From Candidatus Kryptoniota bacterium (lineage in GTDB: Bacteria > Bacteroidota > Ignavibacteria > Kryptoniales > JAKASW01), in assembly GCA_046706365.1 (NCBI GenBank), contig JBJKPN010000083.1:7541-71540 (forward strand): 64,000 nucleotides of DNA. The letters are read 5' to 3'. The position numbers and the translations under genes were made by a program. The notes under the pieces are model-generated. The model had not been told where the DNA came from and did not search any database. It worked only from the letters and a program-made list of their open reading frames with translations. Below are positions 7,861-64,000 of this stretch, one piece after another (positions within the stretch are counted from its first letter, which is position 1; each line of letters starts with the position of its first letter).

Positions 7861-7919
7861 TTTGTGACACTCGCGTTTTTGTCGAATTCCGCTTATTTTA
7901 GAGGTAAGCTCAGGATAAA

Positions 7920-8825: not shown

Positions 8826-8958
8826 CGACTCCCACTTCAGTCAGGCACGCAGGACCATTTCATCTCTGAAACGACCGGACAGCGGGTGAAAACGGTAGTG
8901 ACATAAAGGCCATGCCTCAGTATATTTGGTAGAAAAACAGACAAAGGAAACTCATATC

Positions 8959-42148: not shown

Positions 42149-44800
42149 GTGACGATATTCAAGAATATATTCAGCCGAAAAAGAGCCGAACCGGTTTCGT
42201 TCAAGGATAAGCTCCATCACTTCCAGCGGCTTCTATTTTCCAACGACGAGGCCCTGAAACTAATGGGGAGTCTCAGCGAAATCATAGTTTCGGGAAAGCC
42301 ATTCTCAAAAGGGGACATATTTCCATTCTATTCCGATATACTGACAAATATCGAACAGGTGACCCGGCACCTTTCAGCCATGTGCGGCGGCAGATACAGG
42401 ACGCTTGCCTCCCGGGTTAAAAAGATTAGGGCAGACTGCGATAGCCAACTCGCGCCCGCTCCGTTTTGTCAGGAAAGGTGGGCGTGTGAAAAGGCCAATT
42501 GTGACGGGTGTGAAAAGCGGTCATATCCTGTCCAGGACTCGCCATACTCTTACCGCGTGGACGAGATAACTTACAACCACACACGTGAAGTCGGCGGCAA
42601 GATGAGCCGGCTTTGCGAGGTACATAACCGGTTGGATATTCCCGTCCCGGACGGATTTTGCCTCACGGCCAAGTGTTTCGAAGACTTCCTATCGCAGGAT
42701 GAATTGTATTCAAAGATTGACGAAGCTATATCGTCCATCGATTTCAACGATAATGCCCAGGTCCAGGAGGCGAGCCGGATCATCCAGGCGCTCATCGTGG
42801 CCTCTCCTATTCCGCCCATCATCGAAAGCACCGTTCTCGAAGAATACGATCGCCTTTCGGCCAGGCGCGGTGAGACTCTTGTAGCCGTCAGGTCAAGTGC
42901 CGTCGGGGAGGACGACCTGCATTTTTCGTTTGCCGGATTGCATTATACCGCACTCAATGTAAGCAGGGCTAATCTGGTCGACGCCTGCTTCGAAGTAATG
43001 ATCTCGAAATACCTGCCGCAGTCGCTGGTCTACCGATATATGATGGGCCTCAGAGATGTCGATATGCCTATGAGTATCGGCTGTATGCAGATGCTGGACT
43101 CCGAAGTCAGCGGGGTTCTCTTCACGAAGGACCCTCTGAGAAACAGGGATGAAATAATCATCCAGGCGGTAAGAGGTCTCGGGACTAAAGTGGTTGACGG
43201 AAGCGTGGAGGCACAGGAGTTCATAGTGGAACATTCTGAAAACTGCAGGATGCTTTCGTTCAAGCCCGGCAACCAGGATTATATGGCGACAGCCCGCCCC
43301 ACAGACGGACTGTACGACGAGCAGGTACCCGCCGAATTGAGACGCAAGCCATGTTTGGATGGGAACCAAATCAGGCAGATCGTGGGATACGCTCTCAGGA
43401 TAGAAGAATACTACGGTTCGCCGCAGGATATCGAATGGGCTATCGACGAGGACGGCAAAGTTTACATTCTGCAGTGCAGGCCTCTCGCGGTTTCAGAAGA
43501 GGCAGGCAACCACGAAGAAACAGGACCTCTATCGGAATCAACAGATGTGGAGCGTACTGCATTAATCGACAAGGGCGAATGCGCCAGTCCGGGAATCGGG
43601 TCGGGCAAGGTTTTCCTTTCAAACAGGTCAAGGGATCTTGTGAATTTCCCAACAGGGGGCGTTCTGGTTGTCAGAAAGACCTCACCGGAGTTGACCAGAG
43701 TTCTCCACAAAGCTGCAGGACTTATCGCGGATGTAGGAAACACGACAGGCCATCTTTCAATCATTGCCCGGGAATTGAAAATACCTGTACTTGTGAATAC
43801 GGGCGATGCTACTTCCCGCCTTTCGAACGACATGCCGATAACTGTCGACGCCGGCGCCCACAAGGTCTACCTCGGACTCGAAACACCTGCCCGGCCAGCG
43901 GATTCAGGAAATGTCAATTCGAGCAGCTTCATGCGGAGCCCGATGCACAGAGTATGGAAAAACATAGCCGAGTCGATAATACCTCTCAACCTGACCGATC
44001 CCGACTCTCCTGAATTCTCGCCGGACCACTGCAGGACATTGCACGATGTGACGAGGTTTGCACACGAGTATGCAATGAGGGAGATGTTCTCGCTTTACGA
44101 AGCCGCTGAGGATCAAGACAGGCAGGCATTCCCATTGAGGTTCCCCGTCCCCCTGGACGTCTACGTCATCGACCTCGGAAACGGACTTCAGAAAATAGAA
44201 GGACGGAAGTTCATCACCCCTGAAGACATCACATCCGAACCGTTCAGCTCACTAATCAAAGGGATGACGGCACCCGGCGTCAAGTGGGCGGGGCCGCTCC
44301 CGATCGACCTCAAAGGCTTTACAAACCTTCTGATGGCAAATATCGTCGATGCCGGAAGAAGCGATAGGGCTCTCGGCGGCAGGAGTTACGCGATCATCTC
44401 AGACTGCTACCTGAATTTCTCTTCGAGACTCGGATATCATTTCTCGCGCCTTGACGCTTACGCGAGCGAAGAGATCAACAATAACTATATCAACTTCGAC
44501 TTCCGGGGCGGCGCCGCGGATCCTTTGAGAAGAGTGAGAAGGGCCAGAGTCATAGCAAGGATTCTCGAGCGCTCCAATTTCTCTGTCACCCTGCAGAACG
44601 ACAATGTCCTTGCAACCATAAGGAAGATCTCCGCTTCGGCTATCTACGAGCTGCTGCACGAGATCGGAAGATTGATGGGTGCGGTACGAAATGCCGACGT
44701 TACGCTGATTACTGACGACAGCATAGAACAATTCGTCAACGCTTTTCTCAGCGGAGACCCGGCTCCCGCTATGCGGTTCACCGAAAGGCCTCCTGGCTGA
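42149..44800 (+). CDS. PpsA-like enzyme: Cys-rich N-terminal extension, PPDK_N ATP-grasp domain, PEP-utilizer swivel phosphohistidine domain, about 310-aa C-terminal domain of unknown function
   Basis: 883 aa. GGKMSRLCEV..IPVPDGFCLT, VAVRSSAVGEDDLHFSFAGLHYTALNV, QDIEWAIDEDGKVYILQCRPL (ATP-grasp). LIADVGNTTGHLSIIARELKIPVLV (swivel His). I recognise no PEP-utilizers_C TIM-barrel motifs in the last about 310 aa. N-terminal motif CQERWACEKANCDGCEK. GTG start. Confidence 0.75.
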   Translation: MTIFKNIFSRKRAEPVSFKDKLHHFQRLLFSNDEALKLMGSLSEIIVSGKPFSKGDIFPFYSDILTNIEQVTRHLSAMCGGRYRTLASRVKKIRADCDSQLAPAPFCQERWACEKANCDGCEKRSYPVQDSPYSYRVDEITYNHTREVGGKMSRLCEVHNRLDIPVPDGFCLTAKCFEDFLSQDELYSKIDEAISSIDFNDNAQVQEASRIIQALIVASPIPPIIESTVLEEYDRLSARRGETLVAVRSSAVGEDDLHFSFAGLHYTALNVSRANLVDACFEVMISKYLPQSLVYRYMMGLRDVDMPMSIGCMQMLDSEVSGVLFTKDPLRNRDEIIIQAVRGLGTKVVDGSVEAQEFIVEHSENCRMLSFKPGNQDYMATARPTDGLYDEQVPAELRRKPCLDGNQIRQIVGYALRIEEYYGSPQDIEWAIDEDGKVYILQCRPLAVSEEAGNHEETGPLSESTDVERTALIDKGECASPGIGSGKVFLSNRSRDLVNFPTGGVLVVRKTSPELTRVLHKAAGLIADVGNTTGHLSIIARELKIPVLVNTGDATSRLSNDMPITVDAGAHKVYLGLETPARPADSGNVNSSSFMRSPMHRVWKNIAESIIPLNLTDPDSPEFSPDHCRTLHDVTRFAHEYAMREMFSLYEAAEDQDRQAFPLRFPVPLDVYVIDLGNGLQKIEGRKFITPEDITSEPFSSLIKGMTAPGVKWAGPLPIDLKGFTNLLMANIVDAGRSDRALGGRSYAIISDCYLNFSSRLGYHFSRLDAYASEEINNNYINFDFRGGAADPLRRVRRARVIARILERSNFSVTLQNDNVLATIRKISASAIYELLHEIGRLMGAVRNADVTLITDDSIEQFVNAFLSGDPAPAMRFTERPPG

Positions 44801-46021: not shown

Positions 46022-47206
46022 CTACGAGGACGCCACGACGGAGCCCCGAACGACATTTTCCTGCTTTGCCCGTTCTGCCACCCTTGCCTTAACCGCGGCG
46101 ACGTAAATGGCAAGCGGCCTGTACAATAGGTGTCCCCATTTCCCGAACGGCACCTCCACCACGAGCATCGGGACGACGACCGCCATGTGTACGGTATAGA
46201 TAACATATGTAGCCATCGCCAGGTTATTGACGCGGAAAACATGAAGAAGAATGCCCGTGAGCGCCGCCAGGAACAGCAATATCGGAAAAAGCCAGTCGGA
46301 AAAATGGCTGAACCTGTGCATCCCGGTCCGTTTCTTCATTCTGTCGATGATCATCCATATTGTGGCTATCATCAGTACGCCCGTTGCGTAATACCCTAAG
46401 AAGCTCGTCCAGTGAATGCTGCTGTCGTCCACCTGGAACCAGGGCAGGAATACGACGACAAGCGTGAACATGATGCCGTAGCCGCTGACGAGGAAGAGAT
46501 GGCGCAGCCAGTTCTTCATTTCCGTGCCGCTGCCGCAGTCCTTCCATCGAACTTGTGTCACGCCCTGAACAATCATGTACGGAAGCTGAGTGATGTACAG
46601 CCCCAGGGGTATCCTGTCGCCGCGCGTCATAGCCGCGAACATTCTGGCCGCATTTATTAGCAGCAGGAGACCGAGAGTCGCCGCCATAATTCTGTCGCCC
46701 ACATCAACTATCCCCACCGGCGCAAACCGGTCGAGCATAACGGCAGACAACGGCGCAGGTCCGGAACGGCCGAGCAAACCGAAACCGAAATTCGACGGCA
46801 GGATGAACAGCAATACAATCGCGGCCGCCACCGAGGCGAGGATGCCGATCTCCCAATACACGGATCTGTACATGAGCCGGGATAAGCCTGTCCAGTCGTA
46901 CTTCGAAGTGGCGTATCTTCTCATCGCCATCATTGTTTCGCCCGGCTCCGCTTTGCGCGGGCATCTTTCCGAACAATCCCCGCAATAGAAGCATAGCCAT
47001 GGACCGGGGTCTTCAAGCAGCCGGTCTTTCAATCCCCATTGTGCGAGGAGCATGGGTCTCCGGGGAAACGGGTCTTCCTCGGTCGAGAGGGGGCAGACTG
47101 CCGAACATGTTGCACATTGATAACATTTCTTGAGGTCCCCCGCACCGTACTTCTGAAGCTCCCTTATAAATTCACTGTCGGGAGTGACCAGGCTTCTATC
47201 GTTCAT
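46022..47206 (-). CDS. qmoC: Quinone-interacting membrane-bound oxidoreductase subunit C (HdrC-like 2x[4Fe-4S] domain + heme-b membrane domain)
   Basis: 394 aa. CYQCATCSAVCP and CFYCGDCSERCP ferredoxin motifs, followed by about 6 TM helices with conserved His. Same strand as aprBA and qmoAB. Confidence 0.85.
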   Translation of the reverse strand: MNDRSLVTPDSEFIRELQKYGAGDLKKCYQCATCSAVCPLSTEEDPFPRRPMLLAQWGLKDRLLEDPGPWLCFYCGDCSERCPRKAEPGETMMAMRRYATSKYDWTGLSRLMYRSVYWEIGILASVAAAIVLLFILPSNFGFGLLGRSGPAPLSAVMLDRFAPVGIVDVGDRIMAATLGLLLLINAARMFAAMTRGDRIPLGLYITQLPYMIVQGVTQVRWKDCGSGTEMKNWLRHLFLVSGYGIMFTLVVVFLPWFQVDDSSIHWTSFLGYYATGVLMIATIWMIIDRMKKRTGMHRFSHFSDWLFPILLFLAALTGILLHVFRVNNLAMATYVIYTVHMAVVVPMLVVEVPFGKWGHLLYRPLAIYVAAVKARVAERAKQENVVRGSVVASS

Positions 47207-47219
47207 AGTGTTTGTGCGT

Positions 47220-48044
47220 TCAAGGTTTTACACTTTGCGATGTCAGACGGGTGCCTGTCGGCCTGCCGCCGGATTTCACCCGCATCGTCTTGTCACCGAA
47301 CAGGCAGTACTTGAGCCATGTGATGCCGAACTTGAGCAGCTCTTCGTCATCCGATTTGATTTCGTTCACCAATTCCTCGTCCACTTCGAATCTTTCCAGA
47401 AAGCTGCTCCCAAAGACGAATTCTCTGAACTTATCTATGTTATAGCAGACGGTGTAAAACATTTCGAGCTTTGCCGGAGTAAGCTGCTTCTTCTCCTTGA
47501 AGAAATCGTGCAGCGAAAGTTCTTTGAACAGCTCCCCCATTTCCGAATAATGCTCGACCCCCTGGTCTGCTATCCAATCGGCCACCGTCCAGTCCTTCTG
47601 CTGCAAATATCCCTGACAGACCGACTCCTCGATCATGAAATAAAAATCTCTTTCGCCGCCCTCCCCACTCTCCTTCGGAGAGGCCACACCGAGCGGAAAC
47701 ATCCTGCAGGACCACGGTCGATCCTCATAAATGGAGCAGCCCTCGGACCGGACGAACGGACAGGACTTCCTCTCGTCGTCGTTCATCTTCAGCATGACCA
47801 CGGGGTGGTTCTGGCTCTCGTCGATGGGAAGGAACGTGTATTTGTCGAGGAATTCCTGCGATGAGATCTTCAGTCTGTTCTTCATCCGGATGATGTCATA
47901 CGGGGTCAGGAAGATGTTGACGTCGGTGCAACACATGTTGAAGCAGCTGATCCCTTTGTGGCAGCTGAACTTGAACCCGCTTTCCTTTTTCATGTGCGGA
48001 TAATCTTTCAGCACGGCCTCTTTCAGATTCTCAAGCTCTTTCAT
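47220..48044 (-). CDS. YkgJ/UPF0153-family cysteine-cluster (putative Fe-S or Zn) protein
   Basis: 274 aa. FSCHKGISCFNMCC near the N-terminus and CPFVRSEGCSIYEDRPWSCRMFP, the family hallmark. Lies 13 nt upstream of qmoC. Confidence 0.7.
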   Translation of the reverse strand: MKELENLKEAVLKDYPHMKKESGFKFSCHKGISCFNMCCTDVNIFLTPYDIIRMKNRLKISSQEFLDKYTFLPIDESQNHPVVMLKMNDDERKSCPFVRSEGCSIYEDRPWSCRMFPLGVASPKESGEGGERDFYFMIEESVCQGYLQQKDWTVADWIADQGVEHYSEMGELFKELSLHDFFKEKKQLTPAKLEMFYTVCYNIDKFREFVFGSSFLERFEVDEELVNEIKSDDEELLKFGITWLKYCLFGDKTMRVKSGGRPTGTRLTSQSVKP

Positions 48045-48065
48045 GGCAGGCTCTTTCGTATCAGG

Positions 48066-48455
48066 TTATTCAATAATCGAATCCCTTAGCGCATCTTTGG
48101 ACCAGACCGGAAGCGGACTCGCGCTCCCGCTCACAGGGTCTTCACTGTACCTGTACGAGATGTTCTGGTTGAACTGCTTCTTCATCCAGTCCCATCCCCT
48201 TACGAAATAGGGGCATTCGTCGTTGAAGCATACGTTCAGGAAGTCGGCATCCCATGAAGACCCCTCCGGGCAGCGCCACATCTTCAGCGGCTGATGGCAG
48301 TGGGGACATTCCCCGATTTTCTCTTGTTTCATTTCGTTCGCAATGTCAGAAAGAAGTATTTGTGCCAGATTCGGGAGCGACTCCTGCCGCTCCCGAATCG
48401 GCGAACTTGTTGCTAGTTGACTATCTGATGGATTGGTCTGGAGAACACTTCCCAC
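48066..48455 (-). CDS. Small Cys-rich (zinc-ribbon-like) hypothetical protein downstream of aprA
   Basis: ECPHCHQPLKMWRCPEG ... CFNDECPYFVRGWDWM. The track ORF overlaps the aprA 3' end by 43 nt. The internal Met at 48332 is an alternative start. Confidence 0.55.
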   Translation of the reverse strand: MGSVLQTNPSDSQLATSSPIRERQESLPNLAQILLSDIANEMKQEKIGECPHCHQPLKMWRCPEGSSWDADFLNVCFNDECPYFVRGWDWMKKQFNQNISYRYSEDPVSGSASPLPVWSKDALRDSIIE

Positions 48456-50287
48456 TTGTTATCCTTCGGAATCCATTTCATGTTTACGAATACCTTCCAG
48501 TCCTTCTCGTCCATCGAAGGCTTGTCGGAACGGAAGTAGTATCCGGGCCAGCGGGTCTCTTCCCTGAAAAGAATGGCCCTGACGTGAGCTTCCGCCTGCC
48601 ACATTCTATGGACGTTTTCCCAGCATCTCATCAGTTCGTGAAGGTCCGATGCAGCGAGCTTCTCGGAATCGACCTTCAGATACTCGAGGAGTTCCAGGCC
48701 TTTTTCGAGGAGAGCCTTGCTCGTTTTGAATTGGGAGGAGACGCCGCCTGCGTACTCGTCCATGATCTTCTGCAACCTGAACATGAACATTTTCGGCTTG
48801 ATGTAGTTCGGGTTGATTTCCGGATCCGTCGACGACTTACTGAACTGGCCGTACGTGTCGAGAGGCTTCAGGATCTCAGTCTTCAACGCATCGATTTGTG
48901 CCTGATCGTACTTACGGGATTCGGGGTGATCGATGATATAGTCGATAGCAGCTTTTGCGGCTATCCTGCCTTCGGCATGCGAGCCCGAGGAGAACTTGTG
49001 GCTCGATGCTCCGGACGCGTCGCCGGCGCAGAAGATTCCGCTGATGGTGGACATATTGGCATATCCCCAGAAATAATCCGCAGGGGCAAGATCCTTCGGA
49101 CCGCTGACCCATGCACCGGAGGCGCCGGAATGTGATCCGATGAAGTACGGTTCTGCGGCCGCAATCTCGGAAGGCTTCTGCTCCGGAGCCGTATCTGTAC
49201 CGGCCCACAGGATCGCCTGCGAAATTGTCATGTCAAGGAAGTCTTCCCATGCTTCGGCCTCGAGTTCCTTCAGTTTCTTCTTGGCTGCTTTTTCGTCGCC
49301 GGATTCGGACGCGATCTTGTTGATGGCTTCTTCGGTCCTCATGTAAATCGGGCCTTTTCCGTCCATGACGTCGAGCATCATAAGCCAGTTGCGGAGGTTG
49401 GCGGGGACGGGTTTCACCTTCCCGTACGGTATCCATTTCTCGAGTTCGTCCTTCCGCTCTTCCATGTAGTTGCCGCCCATGCCGTTGGTAGCTCTCGACT
49501 TGAAGAGGAGGAACCAAGCTCCGACCGGGCCGTACGCATCCTTGAACCTTACGGGGATGAAGCGTACTTCCTGGCAGGTCATCTCTGCACCGGCTTTCAG
49601 CGTAAAGTAAGCACTCGACCCGGAATTCCACGGCGGATACCATGCGCGACCGAAGCCTTCTCCGGAAGAACGCGGTTTGAAGACGTGTACCGCTCCGCCC
49701 ATCGCCACCAGGACGGCCTTGGCCTTGAACACGTAGAATTTTTCTTCGCGAACGCTGAACCCGACCGCACCTACGCACACATCGCCGTCCATGAGCGGCC
49801 CGACGATGAATACTCTCTCGTAAATGTTTTCCGCGCCGAGCGCGTTCTTTGCTGCTTCAGCTACTACCACCTTGTATGACTCGCCGTTTATCATCAGCTG
49901 CCACCGGCCTTCATGCACGTAGTTGCCGTTTTCATCCTTCCAGATCGGCAGTCCCCATTTTTCAAATAGATGTACCGTCGAATCGACGTGGCGGGCGATG
50001 TTGTACACAAGGTCCTCGCGAGTAATTCCCATCAGGTCGCTCCGGACGTACTTGACATAATCCTCGGCCGTGTTTTTCCCGTCTTTGATGCCGACGTACT
50101 GGTTGATAGCCGAGAGTCCCATCGCAACCGCACCGCTCCGGTCCACCGCGGCCTTGTCGACAAGCGTGACCTTCAAGCCGTGCTGCTTCGCCCAGTGAGC
50201 GGCTTCGACAGCTGCGCCGCAGGCAGCCATGCCGCCGCCGACTATCAGCAGATCCGTCTCCACTACTTCTGTTTTCAAATTAGCCAT
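48413..50287 (-). CDS. aprA: Adenylylsulfate (APS) reductase alpha subunit
   Basis: 624 aa. TDLLIVGGGMAACGAAVEA FAD motif, fumarate-reductase/AprA-like body. Immediately follows aprB. Confidence 0.92.
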   Translation of the reverse strand: MANLKTEVVETDLLIVGGGMAACGAAVEAAHWAKQHGLKVTLVDKAAVDRSGAVAMGLSAINQYVGIKDGKNTAEDYVKYVRSDLMGITREDLVYNIARHVDSTVHLFEKWGLPIWKDENGNYVHEGRWQLMINGESYKVVVAEAAKNALGAENIYERVFIVGPLMDGDVCVGAVGFSVREEKFYVFKAKAVLVAMGGAVHVFKPRSSGEGFGRAWYPPWNSGSSAYFTLKAGAEMTCQEVRFIPVRFKDAYGPVGAWFLLFKSRATNGMGGNYMEERKDELEKWIPYGKVKPVPANLRNWLMMLDVMDGKGPIYMRTEEAINKIASESGDEKAAKKKLKELEAEAWEDFLDMTISQAILWAGTDTAPEQKPSEIAAAEPYFIGSHSGASGAWVSGPKDLAPADYFWGYANMSTISGIFCAGDASGASSHKFSSGSHAEGRIAAKAAIDYIIDHPESRKYDQAQIDALKTEILKPLDTYGQFSKSSTDPEINPNYIKPKMFMFRLQKIMDEYAGGVSSQFKTSKALLEKGLELLEYLKVDSEKLAASDLHELMRCWENVHRMWQAEAHVRAILFREETRWPGYYFRSDKPSMDEKDWKVFVNMKWIPKDNKWEVFSRPIHQIVN

Positions 50288-50303: not shown

Positions 50304-50747
50304 CTAATGCTTTATTGTGACTACTTCTGGAAGACCCAAAGACTCTGGCTCCGTGAAAAGCACAGGACTCTTGAGGTCGGTATTGCCGGTATGCCACCCG
50401 CCGTCGGGTGCAGCCTTGCCTTCGTCCGTGGTACGAATGGGGAATTTGAATCTTTTCAGTGTGCCGTTTCGGAATTTTATCGTCCACATGATCGAATCGG
50501 TACTTCTCATCGGCGTAACTGTGGCACCGAGTGGGACGAAATCCGCATACCCGCGTACTTCGATGGCCTGCGTCGGGCAGATCTTGACGCAGTTGTAGCA
50601 TTCCCAGCACATTTCAGGTTCGCGGTTGTATGCCTTCATTATGTCCTTGTTCAAGGCCATCAAGTCATTGGGACAGATATACTGACATGCCGTTTTGTCC
50701 AATGCCTTGCATCCGTCGCATTTATCAGGATTCACATAGCTCGGCAT
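50304..50747 (-). CDS. aprB: Adenylylsulfate (APS) reductase beta subunit
   Basis: 147 aa. MPSYVNPDKCDGCKALDKTACQYICPNDLM and CWECYNCVKICP [4Fe-4S] motifs with an AprB-type C-terminal tail. Confidence 0.92.
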   Translation of the reverse strand: MPSYVNPDKCDGCKALDKTACQYICPNDLMALNKDIMKAYNREPEMCWECYNCVKICPTQAIEVRGYADFVPLGATVTPMRSTDSIMWTIKFRNGTLKRFKFPIRTTDEGKAAPDGGWHTGNTDLKSPVLFTEPESLGLPEVVTIKH

Positions 50748-50902: not shown

Positions 50903-52144
50903 CTATTTCTTCAGTTTGTCTGAGCCCTCGCCCGTTGCAAACTGGTGCATCTTGATCTCGACCTTCTGATCCAGTTTGGAATAATAGTCGCGCAGAATCG
51001 CGAGGACTTCCGGGCGGCTGAACTCTGCGGGCACTTCGGAGCCCTCCGACAACGCCTTGCGAAGAGCCGTACCGCTCAGGAACAACCGGTCTTCCTTCTT
51101 GTGCGGGCACGTCTTCATGGATGCCATGCCGCCGCATTTGAAGCACCAGAAAGTCCAGTCGATTGGCAGCGGCTTAAGCAACAAGGCATCGGATGGGATT
51201 TCATAGAAAATTTTCTGCGCGTCGAACGGGCCGTAGTAGTTGCCGACTCCCGCGTGGTCCCTTCCGACGATGAGATGCGTGCAGCCGAAGTTCTGCCTGA
51301 ACACGCCGTGCAGAAGAGCTTCCCTCGGACCGGCATATCTCATGTCGAGCGGATAGCCGCCGCAAAGTACCGTGTCTTTGACGAAATAGTTTTCGACGAG
51401 TACGTCGATGCATTTCGCCCTGACTTCAGCTGGAATGTCTCCGGGTTTCAGTTTCCCGACAAGCTGGTGAATGTACAGCCCGTCGCTGACTTCAAGAGCG
51501 ATTTTCGCCAGGAACTCATGAGAGCGATGCATCGGATTTCGCAGCTGGAGCGCCGCAATCGTTCTCCATCCCTTCTCCGCAAAAATCTTCCTGCTCTCGG
51601 CCGGTCTCTGATAGAGTCCAGCAAACTCAGTCGGGAAATAGCTCTCGGACAGTACTTTTACCGGGCCGGCGACGTTCCATGGCTTCTGCTGCATTACCAT
51701 CTTCACTCCGGGATGCTCCGGGTCTTCCGTTGTGAATACCTGTTTGCATTCGAACCCCTTATCGATCTGGTACTTCTCAGACACCTTCATCGTACCCATG
51801 AGCTCGTCGGTCTCGTCGCTGTACAGTGCGACTTCCTGTCCGGTTTTCAGGGATTTGGCGTCTTCGTCCGTGACCGACATCGTGATGGGAATCGGCCAGA
51901 ACAGCCCGTTAGTCATTCTCATGTCCGAACAGACCCCCTGCCAGTCATCGTGCCCCATGAAGCCGTTAAGCGGGGTGAAGCCTCCGATCCCGAGCATTAT
52001 CATATCACCCGTCTCTCGACTGGTCATGCAAATCTTCTTTAGCCCCGCTGCCTTTCTGGTTTCTTCTTCCTTTTCTTTGCCGCTCAGGAGAAGGACATTC
52101 AGCTTGTCGCTTCCGTGCGGCCGTATTAAAGTAGATTCCGCCAT
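50903..52144 (-). CDS. sat: Dissimilatory-type ATP sulfurylase (sulfate adenylyltransferase, homo-oligomeric Sat)
   Basis: 413 aa. [11 protein letters not shown] (RNPxHxxH) and VGRDHAGVG motifs. No APS-kinase domain. Confidence 0.92.
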
Positions 52145-52434: not shown

Positions 52435-54675
52435 TTACATCCCCTTGTACGGGTTGGGGCCCAGTTCCCTGACCTGCTCGACGAAACTATCGAATATCCC
52501 GGGGAGCTTTGTGTATTCGTCGATGGAAAGTGTCAGAAGTTTCACTCTCTCAGGTTCCAGAACAAGTTGTTTCAATTTCTCCTGCACATTCTCCATTCGC
52601 TTGCTCGCAAGCTCGCTCCCCTTGATGAAATGGCACTGATAATCCACACCGAATTTACAACCGAGCATAAGCACGCCGTCAAACCCCTTGGAGAGCGCGT
52701 CGGCAATCCACACCACGTTCACCGATCCGAGGCACCTCACAGGTATAACTCGGATATTCGGATCGTAATGAAGCCTGTACTTTCCGACCGTGTCCAGCGC
52801 AGGGTAGGCGTCGTTTTCGCACATAAAGGCGAGGATCCTCGGCTTGTCCTCATCCTCGTCGGGTATTTCCACTGCCTTGATCATCGAAGAAATCATCGGC
52901 ACGGAATAGTCCTTGAAGGATATTATTCTCTCCGGGCATGCACCGAGACAGATCCCGCAGCGGCGGCATCTGTTGAGATTAGGCAGCGGAGTACCTTTTT
53001 CGTCCTCGTCAAGCGTCCCGAACGGACACTCCTCCGTACAGCGTTTGCACTGCGTACAGCGCTGCAAAAAGAATTCCGGGTAGGATTCGTCCCCCGATCT
53101 CGGATGGACTGCCTTCCCTACCCTGGCCGAATGTATGAGCTGGATCGCCTTAAGTGTAGCGCCGTAAGCATCATTTCTAGCTGTGGAAAAATCCATGGGC
53201 GCGCGAACACTTCCGGCAGCGTAAATTCCCGTCCGCCTGGTCTCATACGGGAAACAAATGTAATGCGAATCTGGAAAACCGTACCTCAGTGTCGGCAGAT
53301 CGGTTCCCTGTCTGTATGTGAGATTCAATATCTTCGCGCCGACTTCGGCCGATTCGGCAGCTTTCTTGCCGTCGAGGGTCTTCTCAGAAATTGTCGCCGC
53401 TGATCCATCCGATTCGATACTTCCCACCAGCGTGGAGGGGACCATGCCGGTTGCCAGTACGACGAGGTCCGATTGTATGCTGATCCTGTTGCCGAGAAGC
53501 GTGTCATCGATGTCGATTCGGACCGAGCCGTCGGTCGAGGCGGTCAAACCGGCGATTTCACCTTTGGTCAGAAAGACGTTCCTTTCATTTTGCACCCGCT
53601 TATAAAACAGTTCGTGTTCGGCCGGCGTGCGCATATCCCGATAAATTATGTAGACCAGGGCTTCCGGGTATTTCTCCCTTATGTAAAGAGCTTGTTTCAA
53701 AGACATTGAGCAGCAAATTGAAGAGCAATACGGCAGGTGTCTTTCGTCGCGCGAACCGGCGCATAGCACGAACGCGACACTCCTGACGGGTTTGCCGTTC
53801 ATCAAGTCACCGTTGATTCCGTTCTTGAAGCGCTCCTCCAGCTGGAATCCTGTAATCACATTCTCGAATTTTCCGTATCCCAACTCGCCCAGCTTGTTCG
53901 GGTCGTACGGCTTCCACCCGGTCGCCTGAACAATTGCGCCGACTGTCAGCAGTTCGGTTCGCGCTCCCCCGTTGATTCTCAACACGACATGAAAGTCGCC
54001 CGGCTGCCCCGATATTTTTTCAATCGTGCAGGATGTGACCGCGGTAATCCTATCGTTCGACTCCACCTCGGAAATCATTCGTTCTATGCCGGAGAATTGC
54101 GGTTCCAGGAAAGGAGGCTCAATGGGAGCGATGCGGTGAAATTTTGCCATCTGCCCGCCGAGATTCTTTTCCTTTTCCGTAAGTACAACCGTGAATCCGG
54201 CTTTTGCAGCGGCAAGGGCTGACGTCAGTCCCGTTGTCCCGCCTCCAACCACGAGAATAGTCTCGTTCACTTCACTCCGCAACGGCTCAGGGAGTTCACT
54301 GTTTCTTACCTTTGCAACTCCCATTCGGAGATAGTCTTCGGCAAGCATCTGCGTGTCGTCGTCATTCGGCTTGTGCGTCCATGCGACATTCTCGCGGAGA
54401 TTGACACGCTCCACCATGACGCCTGAATCAAAACGAAATACATCCGACAGGAATCTTTGCGAACAGGCACCTATGACGACGCGGTTCAGTTTTTCGCTCT
54501 TTATTTCCTCTCTGATAGTCGCGACGCTTTCATCGCTGCATAACCACCCGTCAACCTTACAGACGGGAACTTTACTCTCGCCGGTGGCGAGCTTCGCGAG
54601 CCCGTCGCAGTTCAGCGCCCCGCCGATTCCGCAGCCCGAACAGAGATAAACGCCTACTTTGGTATCTATAGCCAT
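52435..54675 (-). CDS. qmoB: Quinone-interacting membrane-bound oxidoreductase subunit B (HdrA-like flavoprotein with ferredoxin and MvhD-like domains)
   Basis: 746 aa. VVGGGTTGLTSALAAAKAG FAD motif, CTQCKRCTEECP and CRRCGICLGACP clusters, and a C-terminal ILAFMCENDAYPALD...VIPVRCLGSVN MvhD-like domain. Confidence 0.88.
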   Translation of the reverse strand: MAIDTKVGVYLCSGCGIGGALNCDGLAKLATGESKVPVCKVDGWLCSDESVATIREEIKSEKLNRVVIGACSQRFLSDVFRFDSGVMVERVNLRENVAWTHKPNDDDTQMLAEDYLRMGVAKVRNSELPEPLRSEVNETILVVGGGTTGLTSALAAAKAGFTVVLTEKEKNLGGQMAKFHRIAPIEPPFLEPQFSGIERMISEVESNDRITAVTSCTIEKISGQPGDFHVVLRINGGARTELLTVGAIVQATGWKPYDPNKLGELGYGKFENVITGFQLEERFKNGINGDLMNGKPVRSVAFVLCAGSRDERHLPYCSSICCSMSLKQALYIREKYPEALVYIIYRDMRTPAEHELFYKRVQNERNVFLTKGEIAGLTASTDGSVRIDIDDTLLGNRISIQSDLVVLATGMVPSTLVGSIESDGSAATISEKTLDGKKAAESAEVGAKILNLTYRQGTDLPTLRYGFPDSHYICFPYETRRTGIYAAGSVRAPMDFSTARNDAYGATLKAIQLIHSARVGKAVHPRSGDESYPEFFLQRCTQCKRCTEECPFGTLDEDEKGTPLPNLNRCRRCGICLGACPERIISFKDYSVPMISSMIKAVEIPDEDEDKPRILAFMCENDAYPALDTVGKYRLHYDPNIRVIPVRCLGSVNVVWIADALSKGFDGVLMLGCKFGVDYQCHFIKGSELASKRMENVQEKLKQLVLEPERVKLLTLSIDEYTKLPGIFDSFVEQVRELGPNPYKGM

Positions 54676-54679
54676 GATG

Positions 54680-55936
54680 CTAGTTCCCTTTTATGACCTG
54701 GATTGCTTTTAAAACCGAGCCGGTGGCTTCCTGCACAACCGCGGAAACATCTTTCGGCCCTTTGCTCACACCGCAGCCGATGATTTCCGCACTGTCGGAT
54801 ATCAAGAAGCCGTTACTATCTATCGATGAAGGAGGAACAGGCAAACCGTCGACCGCAGGTTTCATTCCCGTTGCAAGCACAACAAGATCGACAGATTCCT
54901 TCAACCGTACGCTTTTCATGGTGTCTTCGGCTTCCACAATGAGTTTGTCTGAAGAGGGGTCTGGCGACACTTTAGCCACTTTTCCCCTGTGAAAATGCAC
55001 TTTCTCGTCCTTCCGTACCTCTCCGTAGAAATCCTCGAAGAACCCGCTTGATCGAACGTCGATGTAATGGATATGGATTTCAGCGTCGGGGTATTGTTCT
55101 CTGATGTACCGCACATGCTTGAGAGACGCCATGCAGCAGACGGACGAGCAGTACTCCAAGTGATTTTCATCCCTTGATCCCGCACATTGAACGAACGCAA
55201 CTTCCCCAACTTCGCCCAGAGTTGACGGCCTGAGTATCCGCCCCTTCGTCGGGCCGTCGGGCGAAGCAAGCCTTTCCATCATCACGTTCGTGATGACATC
55301 CGGAAATTGTCCGAAGCCAAGGACATCAAGTTTATTGGGATCGTATGGTTCCCAGCCGGTCGCCCAAACAACGGCGCCTGCCTCGATCTCTACGACCTTT
55401 TCCTTTTCAGACAAATCTATCGCCCCGTACTTGCACGCGTCAACGCACTTACTGCAGCTGCTCCCCTCGCAGGTAGCCGGGTCTATTACATACCGCTCCG
55501 GGTATGCATTCTGGTATGGAAGGTAAATTGAAGCTGTTTCATCCATGCCGTAGTTGAACTCGTTCTTCCTCGTCTTGGGGCATACGCTCACGCACTCACC
55601 GCATGAGGTGCATTGACTGGTCACAAATCGCGGACTCAGTCTCACGTTTGCCCTGTACTTCCCCGGCTTGCCCGACACATCGATTACTGTTGCTAGGGTC
55701 AGGAGTCTGATCGCAGGGTTTGTCCGCAGGCGGCGGAGATTGATTTCCAGTCCGCAGCTTGGGGGGCAAAGTTTCGGAAAATACTTGTTGAATTGAGTTA
55801 CCTTTCCACCGACATAGGGCCTCTTTTCAAGGAGCGTTACACTCAATCCCGTTTCGGCGGCCTCCACTGCCGCTGTAAGGCCCGCAATTCCGGCGCCAAC
55901 GACAAGGAGGTCCGATTTAATCATGTTCTCATTCAT
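54680..55936 (-). CDS. qmoA: Quinone-interacting membrane-bound oxidoreductase subunit A (HdrA-like flavoprotein)
   Basis: The start is set at ATG 55936 (MNENMIKSDLLVVGAGIAGLTAAVEAAETG), giving 418 aa. The track ORF start (56071) would overlap the upstream gene by 115 nt. CTSCGECVSVCP cluster. Lies 4 nt before qmoB. Confidence 0.88.
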   Translation of the reverse strand: MNENMIKSDLLVVGAGIAGLTAAVEAAETGLSVTLLEKRPYVGGKVTQFNKYFPKLCPPSCGLEINLRRLRTNPAIRLLTLATVIDVSGKPGKYRANVRLSPRFVTSQCTSCGECVSVCPKTRKNEFNYGMDETASIYLPYQNAYPERYVIDPATCEGSSCSKCVDACKYGAIDLSEKEKVVEIEAGAVVWATGWEPYDPNKLDVLGFGQFPDVITNVMMERLASPDGPTKGRILRPSTLGEVGEVAFVQCAGSRDENHLEYCSSVCCMASLKHVRYIREQYPDAEIHIHYIDVRSSGFFEDFYGEVRKDEKVHFHRGKVAKVSPDPSSDKLIVEAEDTMKSVRLKESVDLVVLATGMKPAVDGLPVPPSSIDSNGFLISDSAEIIGCGVSKGPKDVSAVVQEATGSVLKAIQVIKGN

Positions 55937-56787: not shown

Positions 56788-56839
56788 ACGACCTCCCGGC
56801 TGTAAAGCCCATTGATTGCACGACACTTCATCCCGGTAA

Positions 56840-58589: not shown

Positions 58590-59747
58590 CTATGCTTCGG
58601 CTCCCTTCCTGATCGACAATACCATCTTGTAGAAAAGCGTGATGAACATGAACCCGATGGCCCAAACGCCGAGTGCTATCAGCGACTCGGGGACTGTCGG
58701 CCAGTACTGAATCACTTTACCGAAGGGGGAAGGTATAAAACCCGTAATTATCAATCCGAGACCCTTGTCAATCCAGATCGATATGAAGACGGTAGCACAG
58801 GCTATGAAGAATGTTCTGTTGTTATTCCGTGTGCGGGGAACGATAAGGAGAGCCAGCGACAAGAGGGCCAGAACAGCCGACGTCCACATCCAGGGTGCCA
58901 GCCGTGCAGATCCGTCGAAACCGAAATACAAGTACTGCAGGTGTGAAACGTCGTCCGGGATACCGCTGTAGAAGGTCGTAAAAAATTCCATGAGGATGAA
59001 AAACACATTCACGCACATCGCATAAGTGATAATCACGCCGAGTTTCCTGAACGCTGCGTCGCCCGCGTCAAAACCGGTCAGCCTCTTCATCACGACGCAA
59101 AGGATCACGAGAAGTGCGGGCCCGGCCGCAAAGGCGGATGCGAGGAACCTCGGGGCCATGATGGCGGTCAACCAGAACGGCCGTCCGGCCAATCCCGCGA
59201 GCAGGAACGCCGTCACGGTGTGGATGCTGACAGCCCAAGGAATTGACAGGATGATTATTGGCCGGATCCATTTGGGCGGGCGGATCGATTTACGTTCCGC
59301 GTCCAGCGTCACGCGTGTTATGATTACATTGAGGATCAGGTAACCGCTGAGCGCAATTACGTCCCAGAACAACAACGAATGGGGCGTAGGATAGATGAGG
59401 ATATTCAGAATTCTAAACGGCTGCCCGAGGTCGATAAACACGAAAAGCATACACATAATCACGGAAGAGATGGCGAGAAATTCACCGAGTATCGTGACCT
59501 TCGCGAAAGCCTTGTAATCGTGCAGGTAATACGGCAAAACAACCATGACGGCCGATGCCGCCACCCCAACCATGAAGGTAAACTGGGCAATATACAATCC
59601 CCAGCTGACATTCCTGCTCATGCCGGTCAGCCCCAGTCCGTAGTCCAATTGTCTGAGATAAAAATAAAAGCCAACCGCTATTACGAGGGCCAGAAAAAGG
59701 AGCCAGCTCCAGTAATTCCTGCTTCCTCTGAATGCATGTTCTATCAT
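58590..59747 (-). CDS. dsrP: DsrP, NrfD/PsrC-type integral membrane quinone-interacting subunit
   Basis: 385 aa and about 10 TM. GLGLTGMSRNVSWGLYIAQFTF is NrfD-like. Follows dsrO. Confidence 0.88.
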   Translation of the reverse strand: MIEHAFRGSRNYWSWLLFLALVIAVGFYFYLRQLDYGLGLTGMSRNVSWGLYIAQFTFMVGVAASAVMVVLPYYLHDYKAFAKVTILGEFLAISSVIMCMLFVFIDLGQPFRILNILIYPTPHSLLFWDVIALSGYLILNVIITRVTLDAERKSIRPPKWIRPIIILSIPWAVSIHTVTAFLLAGLAGRPFWLTAIMAPRFLASAFAAGPALLVILCVVMKRLTGFDAGDAAFRKLGVIITYAMCVNVFFILMEFFTTFYSGIPDDVSHLQYLYFGFDGSARLAPWMWTSAVLALLSLALLIVPRTRNNNRTFFIACATVFISIWIDKGLGLIITGFIPSPFGKVIQYWPTVPESLIALGVWAIGFMFITLFYKMVLSIRKGAEA

Positions 59748-59756
59748 TTTCGCGCC

Positions 59757-60560
59757 TTAAACGAGATAATAAATTTCCGGATTCGTGCCCAGCTCCGGCT
59801 TTCGCCTGATCGAGAAATTGTCTTTCAGAAGCTGCCTCACTTCCGAAGACGGATCGTTGAGATTGCCAAACACCATCGCTTTCTCAGGGCACACGTCGAC
59901 GCATATCGGGAGGAGTCCCTGGGCTATTCTTTCATCGCACCAGGTGCATTTCTCTACGACTCCCTTCATCCGCGTCGGGTAATCCGGGTTGATGTCTTTG
60001 ATGAACGGACGAGGGTCCCTCCAGTTGAAGCTTCTCGATCCGAACGGACAGGCGGCCATACAGTACCTGCAGCCGATGCAGCGGTGCCAGTCGATCATCA
60101 CTATGCCGTCGTCGCGCTTGAAAGTCGCCTGTGTTGGGCAGACCTCGACGCACGGCGGGTTGTCGCAGTTGTTGCAGAAAACCGGCACCTTCTTGTTCCT
60201 GAACTCGTCCTTCATGTAGTAGTTTTCCTGTTCGAGGAACGCATTCTCGTAAGGCTCTTTCCATATCCACTTTATCGCGTCTTTTGATTCTCCGAAGTCC
60301 GGTATGTTATGCGCCTTGTTGCAGGCATCGATACATTTCGTGCAGCCCTGATCCGAGACACACTTGCGCAAATCCACGACCATTGCCAGGCGCACCTTCT
60401 GTACGCTCTTCGCCCCGGCCAATCGCTTGCCTGCCCCAACGGCCTTCGACAGGATCTTCGCAGATGTGCTTCCGGCGTGAACGCTCGCGTATCTTTCCGC
60501 CGTTACACCCAGCGCGGTCAGGCCGGCCAGCTTCAGGAGCTTTCTTCGACTTATATCCAT
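59757..60560 (-). CDS. dsrO: DsrO, periplasmic Tat-exported 4x[4Fe-4S] ferredoxin subunit
   Basis: 267 aa. Twin-arginine signal MDISRRKLLKLAG. CIGCRYCMAACP and related clusters. Confidence 0.88.
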   Translation of the reverse strand: MDISRRKLLKLAGLTALGVTAERYASVHAGSTSAKILSKAVGAGKRLAGAKSVQKVRLAMVVDLRKCVSDQGCTKCIDACNKAHNIPDFGESKDAIKWIWKEPYENAFLEQENYYMKDEFRNKKVPVFCNNCDNPPCVEVCPTQATFKRDDGIVMIDWHRCIGCRYCMAACPFGSRSFNWRDPRPFIKDINPDYPTRMKGVVEKCTWCDERIAQGLLPICVDVCPEKAMVFGNLNDPSSEVRQLLKDNFSIRRKPELGTNPEIYYLV

Positions 60561-61464: not shown

Positions 61465-63111
61465 TCAACGATTCTGATTCTGCGCGACCTCTTGATCCGC
61501 CTTTTCGTCATTCGCAGCGAGCGGCTCACCACGAAGGTCGGTATCTCTTTGTTTTTCGCCCTTCATGATCAGCGCATTTCCGACAAGCTCGTGGATTCCG
61601 CCGACATCGACTCCCCCGACCCAGTATTCCATCAGCGGCGGGAGCGTCGCCTTGTCGATTGCGCAAATACAACCGAGGAAGTTGACGCCGTGTTTTTCCT
61701 TCACGAACTTCACCGCATTCGCTCTCGGCAGGCCGCCTCTCATCCTCATCTCCAGGTTTTCATCGGTGCCGAGCCCGGCGCCACTTCCGCAACAGAAGGT
61801 CTGTTCCTTGATCGTATTCTCAGGCATCTCGTAAAAATGGTTGCAGGCATTTCGGATTATAAATCTCGGCTCTTCAATGAGGCCGAGAGCGCGCGCAGGG
61901 TTGCATGAGTCGTGGAAAGTGATTTTCCGGTGATCGTTGCGACTCTTATCCAGCTTAATCTTGTCGTTCTTTATGAGGTCGGCTGTAAACTCGCATATAT
62001 GGACCATTCTCGTGGCTCTTGCGTTCTCGAATTTCGTGCCTGTGACGGGAGAAACGGGTTCATCGAGAAAATCGGCTGGCCCGTTTAGCGTGTCCATGTA
62101 CTGGTGCACGACTCTCCACATATGACCGCACTCTCCGCCCAGGATCCATTTGACCCCGAGCCGCTTGGCTTCAGCGTACATCTTCGCGTTCAGGCTTTTC
62201 ATGAGGTCATGCGAGATGAACGAGCCAAAGTTGCCGCCCTCAGACGCGTAAGTGCTCCAGGTGTAGTCGAGACCGATCTCGTGAAAGAGCGCAAGGTAGC
62301 CGAGTAGCGTGTAGTAATGGGGAGTTCCGAAATAGTCGGCAGACGGCGTAATGAAAAGGATCTCCGCACCTTTCCTGTTGATCGGGGCTTCCACTTTTAC
62401 GCCTGTGATGGACTCGAGCTCATCCACCGCGAAGTCGATGCTGTCCTTGAATCCGTGGGGCTGGATGCCGAGGTGATTACCCGTCCTGAAACTGTTGGCA
62501 ACAGGCGTTACGATCCAGTCGATATTCACGCCGACAAGACTGAGCAGCTCTCTGACCAGTATCGTAATTTCTGCGGTGTCGATTCCGTATGGACAAAACA
62601 CTGAACAGCGCCTGCATTGCGTGCACTGGTAGAAGTAATAGAACCACTCCTTCAGCACGTCGAATGTCAGCTCGCGCGCTCCGGCAAACTTTCCGAGTAT
62701 CTTTCCCGCGACGGTGAAATCGTTTCTGTAGACCGATCTCAACAATTCGGCACGCATTACCGGCATGTTTTTAGGATCCCCGGAGCCTATGAAGAAATGA
62801 CACTTATCCGCGCAAGCACCGCACCTGACGCAAATATCCATGTATATCTGCAGCGACCGGAAGCGATGTAATCGATCCCGGAGCCCTTCCAGGATTATCT
62901 CCTTCCAGTTTTCCGGCAGCTTCCAGTCGGGATCCGTCGGTTGCCATTTCCGCGGGTTCGGCAGTCCAAGGTACTCGATGTTTTTCGGGTTACCGCTGTA
63001 GTTGAAGGTCCCCTCTTTGAAATCCACCGGCTGTTCCATCCAGCCGTTCGGAGGAAGGTTGTACTTGATTTTACCGGCTAATTCTTCCGGTTTTAATTTC
63101 GATCCGGACAT
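61465..63111 (-). CDS. dsrK: DsrK, cytoplasmic HdrD-like Fe-S subunit with CCG domains
   Basis: 548 aa. CVRCGACADKCH, CTQCRRCSVFCP, and CCG-type motifs FHDSCNPAR and QTFCCGSGAG. Confidence 0.9.
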   Translation of the reverse strand: MSGSKLKPEELAGKIKYNLPPNGWMEQPVDFKEGTFNYSGNPKNIEYLGLPNPRKWQPTDPDWKLPENWKEIILEGLRDRLHRFRSLQIYMDICVRCGACADKCHFFIGSGDPKNMPVMRAELLRSVYRNDFTVAGKILGKFAGARELTFDVLKEWFYYFYQCTQCRRCSVFCPYGIDTAEITILVRELLSLVGVNIDWIVTPVANSFRTGNHLGIQPHGFKDSIDFAVDELESITGVKVEAPINRKGAEILFITPSADYFGTPHYYTLLGYLALFHEIGLDYTWSTYASEGGNFGSFISHDLMKSLNAKMYAEAKRLGVKWILGGECGHMWRVVHQYMDTLNGPADFLDEPVSPVTGTKFENARATRMVHICEFTADLIKNDKIKLDKSRNDHRKITFHDSCNPARALGLIEEPRFIIRNACNHFYEMPENTIKEQTFCCGSGAGLGTDENLEMRMRGGLPRANAVKFVKEKHGVNFLGCICAIDKATLPPLMEYWVGGVDVGGIHELVGNALIMKGEKQRDTDLRGEPLAANDEKADQEVAQNQNR

Positions 63112-63113
63112 TT

Positions 63114-64000
63114 CTATTCCTTATCCAAAGGTAATCCTGCTTCTTTCATCTTCTCCCGGAATTCGTCCTCATACTCCGGATAGGTGTGAACCCGGACCGG
63201 ACGATTCCACGGGTTAACGTGTCTCTTCATGCGACTGTTGTTCGCCAGGTTCCTCGTCGGCGACAGGAATATCCCGGGCATGTGCAGCAGCTTGCTGAAC
63301 GGGAAATACGCGAGAAGCGCACACACGAGGAATAGGTGCGTGTAGAAAATTACCCCGATGCCCTGTGGGACCGCGGGATGAAAGGTGAACAGGCCGATGA
63401 TGAGCTCCTTTACGTTGACGAGGTCCACCCTGATGAAATAACGCATCAGGATTCCGGTTATCGCGATGCTGATTATGAGAAACAACGGGAAATAATCTGA
63501 CGCGAGCGAGATGTACCTGAGCTTGGGCACGACAATTCGACGGAGGATCAGGTATGTCAGGGCGGCCACTATAAGTACATCCGTGATATAAACTCCCGGG
63601 AGCCCCACCTGGAAGAACCCGTCGATGCTTTCGATCGCCGGCACAAAAGAGGGCACGGGCTGCATGAAAAGCCTGAAATGCCGCAGCACGATGATGAGCA
63701 TGGACCAGTGGAAAACTATCGCTCCGAGCCAAAGGTACTTGCTGCTTCCGTAAACAAGCCTGGGCCCGTCCTTCATTTCCATCTTCGTGTTGCGGAACAG
63801 CGAACGGAAAAACAACACCTCGAGGGCCATCCTCCCGATAACACCCCACGTTCCGCTTGGACTCTCCAGCTTGCTGCTCTTTATCCAGGAAAGAGATTTT
63901 TGCTGTCCCGCTACCGTCGGGATGTGAAACGGCACAGGCGACTTTGACCATTTAACGACGCGGTAAATGATACCGACAAGGAAGATTGTCATTGCCGAGT
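63114..64000 (-). CDS. dsrM: DsrM, NarI-like diheme-b membrane subunit; 5' end probably beyond the window
   Basis: 292 aa counted from the Met at 63992, but the frame stays open to base 64000 and the first TM helix looks truncated. It has multi-TM NarI-like topology with conserved His and ends ...YPEYEDEFREKMKEAGLP. Lies 2 nt before dsrK. Confidence 0.82.
   Translation of the reverse strand, partial: SAMTIFLVGIIYRVVKWSKSPVPFHIPTVAGQQKSLSWIKSSKLESPSGTWGVIGRMALEVLFFRSLFRNTKMEMKDGPRLVYGSSKYLWLGAIVFHWSMLIIVLRHFRLFMQPVPSFVPAIESIDGFFQVGLPGVYITDVLIVAALTYLILRRIVVPKLRYISLASDYFPLFLIISIAITGILMRYFIRVDLVNVKELIIGLFTFHPAVPQGIGVIFYTHLFLVCALLAYFPFSKLLHMPGIFLSPTRNLANNSRMKRHVNPWNRPVRVHTYPEYEDEFREKMKEAGLPLDKE

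Follow-up and report, generated by a model that had tools for sequence, protein, structure and literature searches.

A conserved zinc-ribbon/YkgJ gene pair next to aprBA in the sulfate-activation clusters of mostly uncultured bacteria

A 64,000-nucleotide stretch of contig JBJKPN010000083.1 from a Candidatus Kryptoniota bacterium, here called the window, carries a dissimilatory sulfur gene cluster on its minus strand, between 46.0 and 64.0 kb. As read from the list of open reading frames (ORFs) and from profile searches, the part that concerns us is ordered qmoA-qmoB-sat-aprB-aprA-Zn88 gene-YkgJ274 gene-qmoC, with sat encoding ATP sulfurylase and aprBA the two subunits of adenosine 5′-phosphosulfate (APS) reductase. 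On the 5′ side of qmoA lie dsrM-like, dsrK-like, dsrO-like and dsrP-like genes, a CoA-disulfide-reductase/rhodanese fusion gene and a cytidylate-kinase-like gene; a porin gene comes last in the cluster, after qmoC. Zn88 is a Cys4 zinc-ribbon protein of 88 amino acids (aa) and YkgJ274 a 274-aa protein of the YkgJ/CxxCxxCC family. An earlier note on this DNA had pointed to two cysteine-rich proteins encoded on one strand between aprA and qmoC, and both the ORFs and the profile searches of the neighbouring genes confirm it. The two genes make up a conserved cassette, which in many lineages, most of them uncultured, is part of the genes for dissimilatory sulfate activation and APS reduction. The window holds a Sat-AprBA-Qmo system with two extra conserved components.

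Conservation of this arrangement emerges from two reciprocal scans. The genome scan was seeded from YkgJ274, with one genome per GTDB species, and gave 557 genomes with a relative, of which the best 80 loci were used; the metagenome scan was seeded from Zn88. Gene presence in the loci was read by tblastn with the window proteins. Loci L001-L168 supply ~140 natural Zn88/YkgJ pairs. The Zn88 gene lies directly 5′ of the YkgJ gene in all 79 testable genome loci (80 species), and a YkgJ gene directly 3′ of Zn88 in 64 of the 75 testable metagenome loci. Among loci with at least 3.5 kb of upstream flank, AprA is encoded in 61 of 65 from the genome scan and in 29 of 31 from the metagenome scan, so that the co-occurrence with aprBA that the earlier note proposed to check is strongly positive. 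Most often AprA is encoded directly upstream of Zn88 (59/75 testable genome loci and 42/56 testable metagenome loci), and in most exceptions an H+-pyrophosphatase gene, which itself fits a sulfate-activation cluster, parts aprA from Zn88. This insertion was seen in an Ignavibacteria group, at 7601-9490 of locus L023 and at equivalent positions of L018, L021, L022, L025, L028-L030, L035, L109 and L115. Zn88 and YkgJ274 retain 50-80% identity to their homologues in dozens of species; because gene order is conserved in addition, both genes are real and their conservation is far beyond chance. Since AprA co-occurs in the locus, usually directly upstream, the pair is a well-supported candidate for a functional tie to APS reduction.

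Carriers found in the genome scan are Kryptoniota, Ignavibacteria, Kapabacteria, Zixibacteria, Calditrichaeota, Abyssobacteria and unclassified metagenome-assembled genomes (MAGs); outside that list, Terriglobia (Acidobacteriota) and MAGs of Desulfobacteraceae or Deltaproteobacteria carry the genes too. The best matches of the window YkgJ274 come from Kryptoniota MAGs (81% identity), and the homologues in Kapabacteria loci L063 and L074 are 58% identical to it. In at least six phyla the pair has stayed next to aprA although its other neighbours differ. Kryptoniota, many Ignavibacteria and Kapabacteria have qmoC after the pair, whereas in 37 of 46 testable metagenome loci qmoA comes next, followed by qmoB and qmoC; aprB-aprA-Zn88-YkgJ-qmoA-qmoB-qmoC is the order met most often there. 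It also occurs in a Terriglobia MAG, continued by dsrAB. Zixibacteria have dsrM-like and dsrK-like genes after the pair, and the dsrK-like neighbour matches the CCG domain PF02754. MAGs of Desulfobacteraceae or Deltaproteobacteria show the order sat-aprBA-qmoABC-Zn88, with two YkgJ paralogues on the other strand, 1-2 kb away, that are 41-44% identical to YkgJ274 over the full length; in such Desulfobacterota-like loci the Zn88 and YkgJ genes are relocated, yet remain within 2-3 kb of qmoC. The downstream partner was always an Hdr-like or membrane redox module in the loci examined. What comes after the cassette differs between lineages (qmoC, qmoABC or dsrMK-like), and it is therefore aprBA, not QmoC, to which the pair is stably linked. 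The idea of partners of AprBA and QmoC, as the earlier note had it, therefore survives for AprBA, and the link with QmoC turns out to be lineage dependent.

YkgJ274 is built of an N-terminal cysteine cluster (residues ~25-145) and a conserved all-helical C-terminal domain (~150-250). The motifs on which its assignment to the YkgJ/UPF0153 type had been based, SCHKGISCFNMCC (residues 27-39) and CPFVRSEGCSIYEDRPWSCRMFP (residues 95-117), are present, and the match to the CxxCxxCC family PF03692 reaches 41.1 bits against a cut-off of 23. It has 4974 homologues, and the top 120 cover at least 93% of its length with 57-100% identity. An alignment of 97 homologues, with 54-82% identity to the window protein and a mean column identity of 66%, reveals eight invariant cysteines (C28, C34, C38, C39, C95, C103, C113 and C143) and a ninth, C200, kept in at least 90% of the sequences. 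The first four constitute a CX5CX3CC motif (C28-x5-C34-x3-C38C39); the second half-motif, C95PF...C103.IY..RPW.C113R, is likewise invariant. The AlphaFold2 model has a mean predicted local distance difference test (pLDDT) score of 77.8, with values >90 in the C-terminal helices and weak cysteine loops, as expected since the metal is absent from the model. Comparison with PDB chains gave only noise for the sequence (E ≥ 0.05) and nothing below E = 1 for the model in Foldseek. In NCBIfam, YkgJ274 is unmatched at E ≤ 0.1 and the Desulfobacterota-type paralogues are likewise without a family, and the CCG domain PF02754 is not matched by YkgJ274 at E ≤ 0.01. Pfam recognizes no FAD, Fer4, FlpD or cytochrome-b domain in either Zn88 or YkgJ274, which are thus not homologues of QmoA, QmoB or QmoC.

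The small partner, Zn88, contains the segments MKQEKIGECPHCHQ...CFNDECPYFVRGWDWM...PLPVWSKDALRDSIIE. Because 78 homologues (48-77% identity, lengths ~88-95 aa) align from the ATG at 48332, its product is 88 aa long (48332..48066). The zinc ribbon perceived in the earlier note is there, with four cysteines, and the upper end of the length it gave (~90-129 aa) falls away. That length corresponds to a GTG ORF of 129 aa (48455..48066), rejected as it shares 43 nt with the end of aprA and has an unconserved N-terminal extension. Also rejected was the 71-aa NCBI annotation of the gene (P0121), which starts past the first cysteine pair and loses the CPHC motif. In the alignment of the 78 homologues, C9, C12, C35 and C40 are invariant and the Trp-rich C-terminal half is strongly conserved. 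The AlphaFold2 model (mean pLDDT 91.2) consists of a zinc ribbon, a helix and a β-hairpin, in this order; neither this model (Foldseek, nothing below E = 1) nor the sequence (noise only, E ≥ 0.05) finds a counterpart among PDB chains, and no NCBIfam family matches. The Pfam family Ogr_Delta (PF04606) is matched marginally, at 28.1 bits against a gathering threshold of 26.3, and the match is confined to the zinc ribbon (residues 49-93 of the 129-aa ORF), leaving the conserved C-terminal half outside the model. A precomputed PF04606 tag is nevertheless attached to most Zn88 homologues, which bear the NCBI name ‘ogr/Delta-like zinc finger family protein’. When 1.84 billion cluster representatives were searched with a profile, only 276 clusters matched at E ≤ 0.001. 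Judged by its sequence, Zn88 is a small and specific family, not a generic Ogr/Delta protein.

The Zn88 domain, including its C-terminal half, also occurs fused N- or C-terminally to class-I S-adenosylmethionine (SAM) methyltransferase domains, in a family of proteins of ~353 aa with 1948 matches at E ≤ 1e-10; other fusions join it to a lipocalin-like domain or to extra zinc ribbons. This variety of fused domains characterizes Zn88 as a portable module for binding or targeting, not as a catalytic unit. Around three methyltransferase-Zn88 fusion genes, neither sulfur genes nor a YkgJ gene were present, and no conserved neighbour was informative. Examples of fusion proteins, all outside the window, are P0279, P0287, P0300, P0320 and P0272, and the methyltransferase fusions are well conserved in Desulfobacterota-like MAGs.

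Spacing within the cluster is uneven. The 13-21 nt spacers reported earlier hold for Zn88 to YkgJ274 (21 nt) and for YkgJ274 to qmoC (13 nt) but not for aprA to Zn88, which are separated by 80 nt with a hairpin. The Zn88 and YkgJ genes are often translationally coupled, with a median spacer of ~12 nt and overlaps of 1-29 nt in 17 of 79 loci. By contrast, the aprA-Zn88 spacer measures at least 62 nt in 60 loci. In the window, a perfect hairpin of 14-17 bp begins right after the aprA stop codon and is followed by a U-rich stretch; none of 200 shuffled sequences folds as stably. Relatives (L004, L006, L007 and L008) have hairpins of differing sequence, together with T-runs, at the equivalent position. 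No Rfam family was matched in the region, and scans for sigma-70 promoters and simple terminators gave counts not above those of shuffled sequences. The hairpin is probably terminator- or attenuator-like, or mRNA stabilizing, and as such would set the ratio of AprBA to downstream expression. Because the aprA-Zn88 spacer is structured and the Zn88-YkgJ spacer short, the cassette appears to share an expression unit with the downstream electron-transfer genes and not with the highly expressed aprBA.

Within the literature searched, the arrangement has been reported once, in passing, and never analysed; both families are known and essentially uncharacterized. The order "sat-aprBA-hyp-hyp-qmoC" was mentioned for ‘Ca. 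Thermonerobacter thiotrophicus’ (Thiel et al. 2019, PMC6338057), whose cluster has the same gene order as the window; one of the two genes carries the IMG label ‘Predicted Fe-S-cluster oxidoreductase’ and the other is labelled hypothetical. The homologues are listed in the DSR cluster used there for in situ transcript profiles (PMC6338057 Table S2). That study gives their presence only, without family, distribution or function, and in a lineage different from that of the window. Searches of the available library for YkgJ, COG0727 or Ogr-like proteins in connection with apr or qmo gave nothing beyond it.

Another reference point is FliB, the sole characterized PF03692 protein and the flagellin lysine-N-methylase of Salmonella (PMC8598068). 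Its CX4CX3CC motif binds an oxygen-sensitive [4Fe-4S] cluster required for SAM-dependent flagellin methylation, and the protein has eight conserved cysteines and one cluster only (PMC8598068). To say that YkgJ proteins bind metal or Fe-S clusters but have no settled function, as the earlier note did, is therefore slightly dated. FliB and YkgJ274 have in common the Pfam domain with its CC-ending N-terminal motif (CX4CX3CC versus CX5CX3CC), further conserved cysteines (five more in YkgJ274) and a largely helical remainder. The likeness is restricted to the Pfam cysteine domain and is not found over the full length, as judged from NCBIfam, which we take to contain a FliB model. Moreover, FliB is a large homo-oligomer that acts on flagellin, whereas YkgJ274 has a zinc-ribbon partner gene; in place of a flagellar context, nearly all loci display a sat-aprBA/qmo/dsr context. 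The proteins differ in size as well, FliB having ~400 aa. Escherichia coli YkgJ (COG0727, UPF0153) shares with YkgJ274 the CxxCxxCC domain and the half-motif CPF...C..Y..RP..CR.FP. Generic YkgJ proteins are single-domain proteins of ~100-150 aa, to which the YkgJ274 subfamily adds a conserved helical domain of ~110 residues, C143 and C200.

Extra genes have been met before in this pathway. In the aprBA-qmoABC operon of D. vulgaris, the promoter-distal hypothetical gene DVU0851 (‘QmoD’) is co-expressed with qmo and is, like the present pair, an uncharacterized addition to an apr-qmo operon. An identity of Zn88 or YkgJ274 with DVU0851 was rejected from the published size and distribution of DVU0851, a 25.8 kDa protein reported to be without homologues outside Desulfovibrio. 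DsrD offers an analogy of logic: this small accessory protein of dissimilatory sulfite reductase, encoded beside catalytic genes, was for long mistaken, on account of its fold, for a DNA-binding protein and later found to be an allosteric activator of DsrAB. The analogy goes no further, as DsrD has no sequence or fold relation to Zn88 or YkgJ274 and concerns another enzyme.

The electron route to APS reductase is a long-standing gap in the bioenergetics of sulfate reduction. Purified QmoABC and AprAB bind tightly, but no electron transfer from menaquinol analogues to APS was obtained with them, and a ‘third partner’ was postulated for the transfer from quinol to APS (Ramos et al. 2012, PMC3333476). 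It is tempting to propose that the cassette encodes such a partner, i.e. a redox adaptor of the AprBA-Qmo step, a role that we put forward tentatively and at somewhat less than an even chance. By analogy with the FliB motif, YkgJ274 would bind at least one oxygen-sensitive [4Fe-4S] cluster through CX5CX3CC, and its further conserved cysteines could hold a second cluster or serve thiol chemistry. Zn88 would bind one zinc ion through its four cysteines and act as the partner or docking subunit of YkgJ274. The resulting heterodimer may be a cytoplasmic accessory of the AprBA-Qmo step that would dock on AprBA, or else on AprB/QmoA, and be required there for productive electron delivery to APS reductase. 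Because the hairpin after aprA separates two expression units, the pair would be made at the lower level of qmo and not at that of AprBA.

Several observations weigh against a redox adaptor. In four genome loci the pair is present with no apr gene within 10 kb, and both scans drew on the 80 best of ~550 relatives, so that more distant family members lie outside the sample. The divergence of Zn88 and of YkgJ tracks that of AprA with mirror-tree correlations (r = 0.57-0.63, compared with r = 0.76 for AprA and AprB) that are moderate and can be explained by plain co-inheritance, and Zn88 and YkgJ show no extra co-divergence with each other (partial r 0.17). In the cultured Desulfobacterota and Thermodesulfobacteria covered in the literature, and in Dissulfuribacter, aprBA is directly followed by qmoABC, so that the pair is missing from that position and cannot be a universal requirement. 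In Dissulfuribacter thermophilus, the unnamed gene DITHS69_0903 stands between qmoC and tuf. Furthermore, the sole characterized relative with a YkgJ domain is an enzyme, a methylase, and not an electron carrier, and the fusions of Zn88 to methyltransferases seem to fit a catalytic or targeting role better than that of a wire. Finally, the Fe-S cluster of YkgJ274, the zinc of Zn88 and the complexes of the two proteins with each other, AprBA or Qmo are what we infer.

Nearly as likely as a redox adaptor is a factor that matures or modifies AprBA. In the wider form of this reading, which is possible if doubtful, YkgJ274 would be a FliB-like [4Fe-4S] enzyme, perhaps SAM dependent, with Zn88 as substrate-targeting adaptor and with AprBA or another protein of the pathway as target; the pair would then be catalytic and substoichiometric. 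The precedent is FliB itself, a [4Fe-4S]- and SAM-dependent lysine methylase with eight conserved cysteines (PMC8598068), although the similarity of YkgJ274 to it is seen only in the Pfam domain, NCBIfam giving no match at E ≤ 0.1. Fusions of Zn88 to SAM methyltransferase, lipocalin-like and zinc-ribbon domains are typical of a portable recognition module, but those with methyltransferases sit in non-sulfur contexts without a YkgJ gene, and the methylation theme may be a coincidence. An expression below that of AprBA, implied by the hairpin after aprA, and the existence of stand-alone copies of the pair are in keeping with a modifying enzyme. To our knowledge, no SAM-binding motif is known for the PF03692 fold, and we know of no post-translational modification in the solved structures of AprBA. 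The adjacent CC pair within a multi-cysteine motif and the nine conserved cysteines also recall the CCG domains of HdrB and DsrK, and YkgJ274 could be a thiol/disulfide or sulfur-handling enzyme whose substrate, at the APS/sulfite step, would be a sulfur intermediate or carrier. Its neighbours are Hdr-like, and a DsrK-like CCG protein follows directly in Zixibacteria; nevertheless, the likeness is at the level of motifs, as PF02754 is not matched, and we know of no sulfur-carrier step between APS and sulfite. Such an enzyme is improbable.

A slightly lower probability still is given to a regulatory pair, in which Zn88 would be an Ogr/Delta-type activator of the apr/qmo operon and YkgJ274 its redox- or iron-sensing partner. 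The Ogr_Delta match lies formally above threshold (28.1 versus 26.3 bits), the cysteine spacing C-x2-C-x22-C-x4-C is that of the Ogr/Delta family, and the name of the NCBI homologues points the same way. Indeed, the Cys4 ribbon spacing of Zn88 is identical to that of the phage late-gene activators of PF04606. The match is, however, marginal and limited to the ribbon, and the model has no relation to the conserved C-terminal half of 45 residues. With 276 clusters in 1.84 billion representatives the family is narrow, and it is not phage associated, no phage genes being found around Zn88; fusions to enzymes would be unusual for a DNA-binding activator, and no signs of DNA binding, neither a helix-turn-helix nor a basic surface, were found in Zn88. 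Least probable of all is that the function of the pair is unrelated to sulfur and that its genes were merely co-transferred with the apr cluster. Loci with the pair alone, and model sulfate reducers without the pair at this position, would be accounted for in this way. Adjacency to aprA across at least six phyla despite changing neighbours argues otherwise, as do the Desulfobacterota-like genes that have moved and are still within 2-3 kb of qmoC, and the high conservation of the proteins.

Whatever its role, the pair is a concrete, clonable candidate for the extra partner postulated for QmoABC and AprAB. Its carriers abound in soils, peat, sediments and hot springs, and the pair could mark a distinct and widespread version of the Sat-Apr-Qmo module. 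The full proposal is that the pair is an unrecognized component of APS reduction in a large share of the environmental sulfate and sulfur cyclers (Acidobacteriota, Zixibacteria, Ignavibacteria/Kryptoniota and some Desulfobacterota), serving either as the ‘third partner’ or as a FliB-like [4Fe-4S]/SAM modifier of AprBA; taken as a whole, it is rather unlikely. Should a FliB-like modifying enzyme be involved, it would provide only the second functional assignment in the large YkgJ/PF03692 family.

Coordinates of the features of the sulfur gene cluster in the window, with the basis of each assignment
Feature	Position	Strand	Basis
Zn88 gene, 88-aa Cys4 zinc-ribbon protein	48066..48332	-	ORF; start by alignment of 78 homologues
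YkgJ274 gene, 274-aa YkgJ/CxxCxxCC family	47220..48044	-	PF03692, E 2.9e-10, residues 28-132
Hairpin 3′ of aprA	48364..48402	-	RNA fold, -35.9 kcal/mol, z = -3.58
aprA, APS reductase alpha subunit	48413..50287	-	TIGR02061, 906.8 bits versus 641.75 cut-off
aprB, APS reductase beta subunit	50304..50747	-	PF12139 APS-reductase_C, E 4.5e-36, and Fer4 domains
qmoC	46022..47206	-	NF038018, E 1.1e-70, and Fer4_8 match
sat, ATP sulfurylase	50903..52144	-	PF01747, E 6e-87, and PUA_2
qmoB	52435..54675	-	Pyr_redox_2, FAD_oxidored and Fer4 domains; C-terminal FlpD/MvhD domain
qmoA	54680..55936	-	FAD/NAD-binding and Fer4 domains; 63-79% identity to qmoA of related loci
dsrM-like	63992..63114	-	
dsrK-like	63111..61465	-	
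dsrO-like	60560..59757	-	
dsrP-like	59747..58590	-	

The qmo genes of the window are split, qmoA and qmoB lying upstream of sat and qmoC downstream of the Zn88/YkgJ274 pair. The qmoC product combines a 4Fe-4S dicluster domain at the N-terminus with a membrane domain of the cytochrome-b type; its match to NF038018, at 238.9 bits, is below the cut-off of 300, yet covers positions 1-358 of 360. In related loci, the ‘QmoC’ encoded after the pair falls into two classes, with ~65-80% or ~30% identity to the window QmoC. In the Zixibacteria locus L033 (10859-13397, chromosome CP070824), a QmoC-like gene stands divergently upstream of sat, with no qmoAB within 10 kb. For qmoA, the ATG at 55936 is the likely start, the listed TTG ORF extending to 56071.

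Among the remaining genes, two lie between dsrMKJOP and qmoA and encode a CoA-disulfide-reductase-like flavoprotein with a C-terminal rhodanese domain (56840-58537, minus strand) and a cytidylate-kinase-like protein (55957-56826, minus strand). Convergent to the end of qmoC is a gene for an 883-aa protein (42149-44800, plus strand) related to pyruvate phosphate dikinase (PPDK), with PPDK_N and phosphoenolpyruvate (PEP)-utiliser mobile domains and no match for the C-terminal PEP/pyruvate domain; the same convergent arrangement is found in the Ignavibacteria locus L023 (11975-14617, minus strand). Such a PPDK-like enzyme could recycle the AMP and pyrophosphate released by Apr and Sat. A gene for a TauE/SafE-type sulfite exporter (38584-39636, plus strand) lies 6 kb from the cluster and, further upstream, an ORF of 2127 aa occupies positions 22719-29102 of the minus strand.

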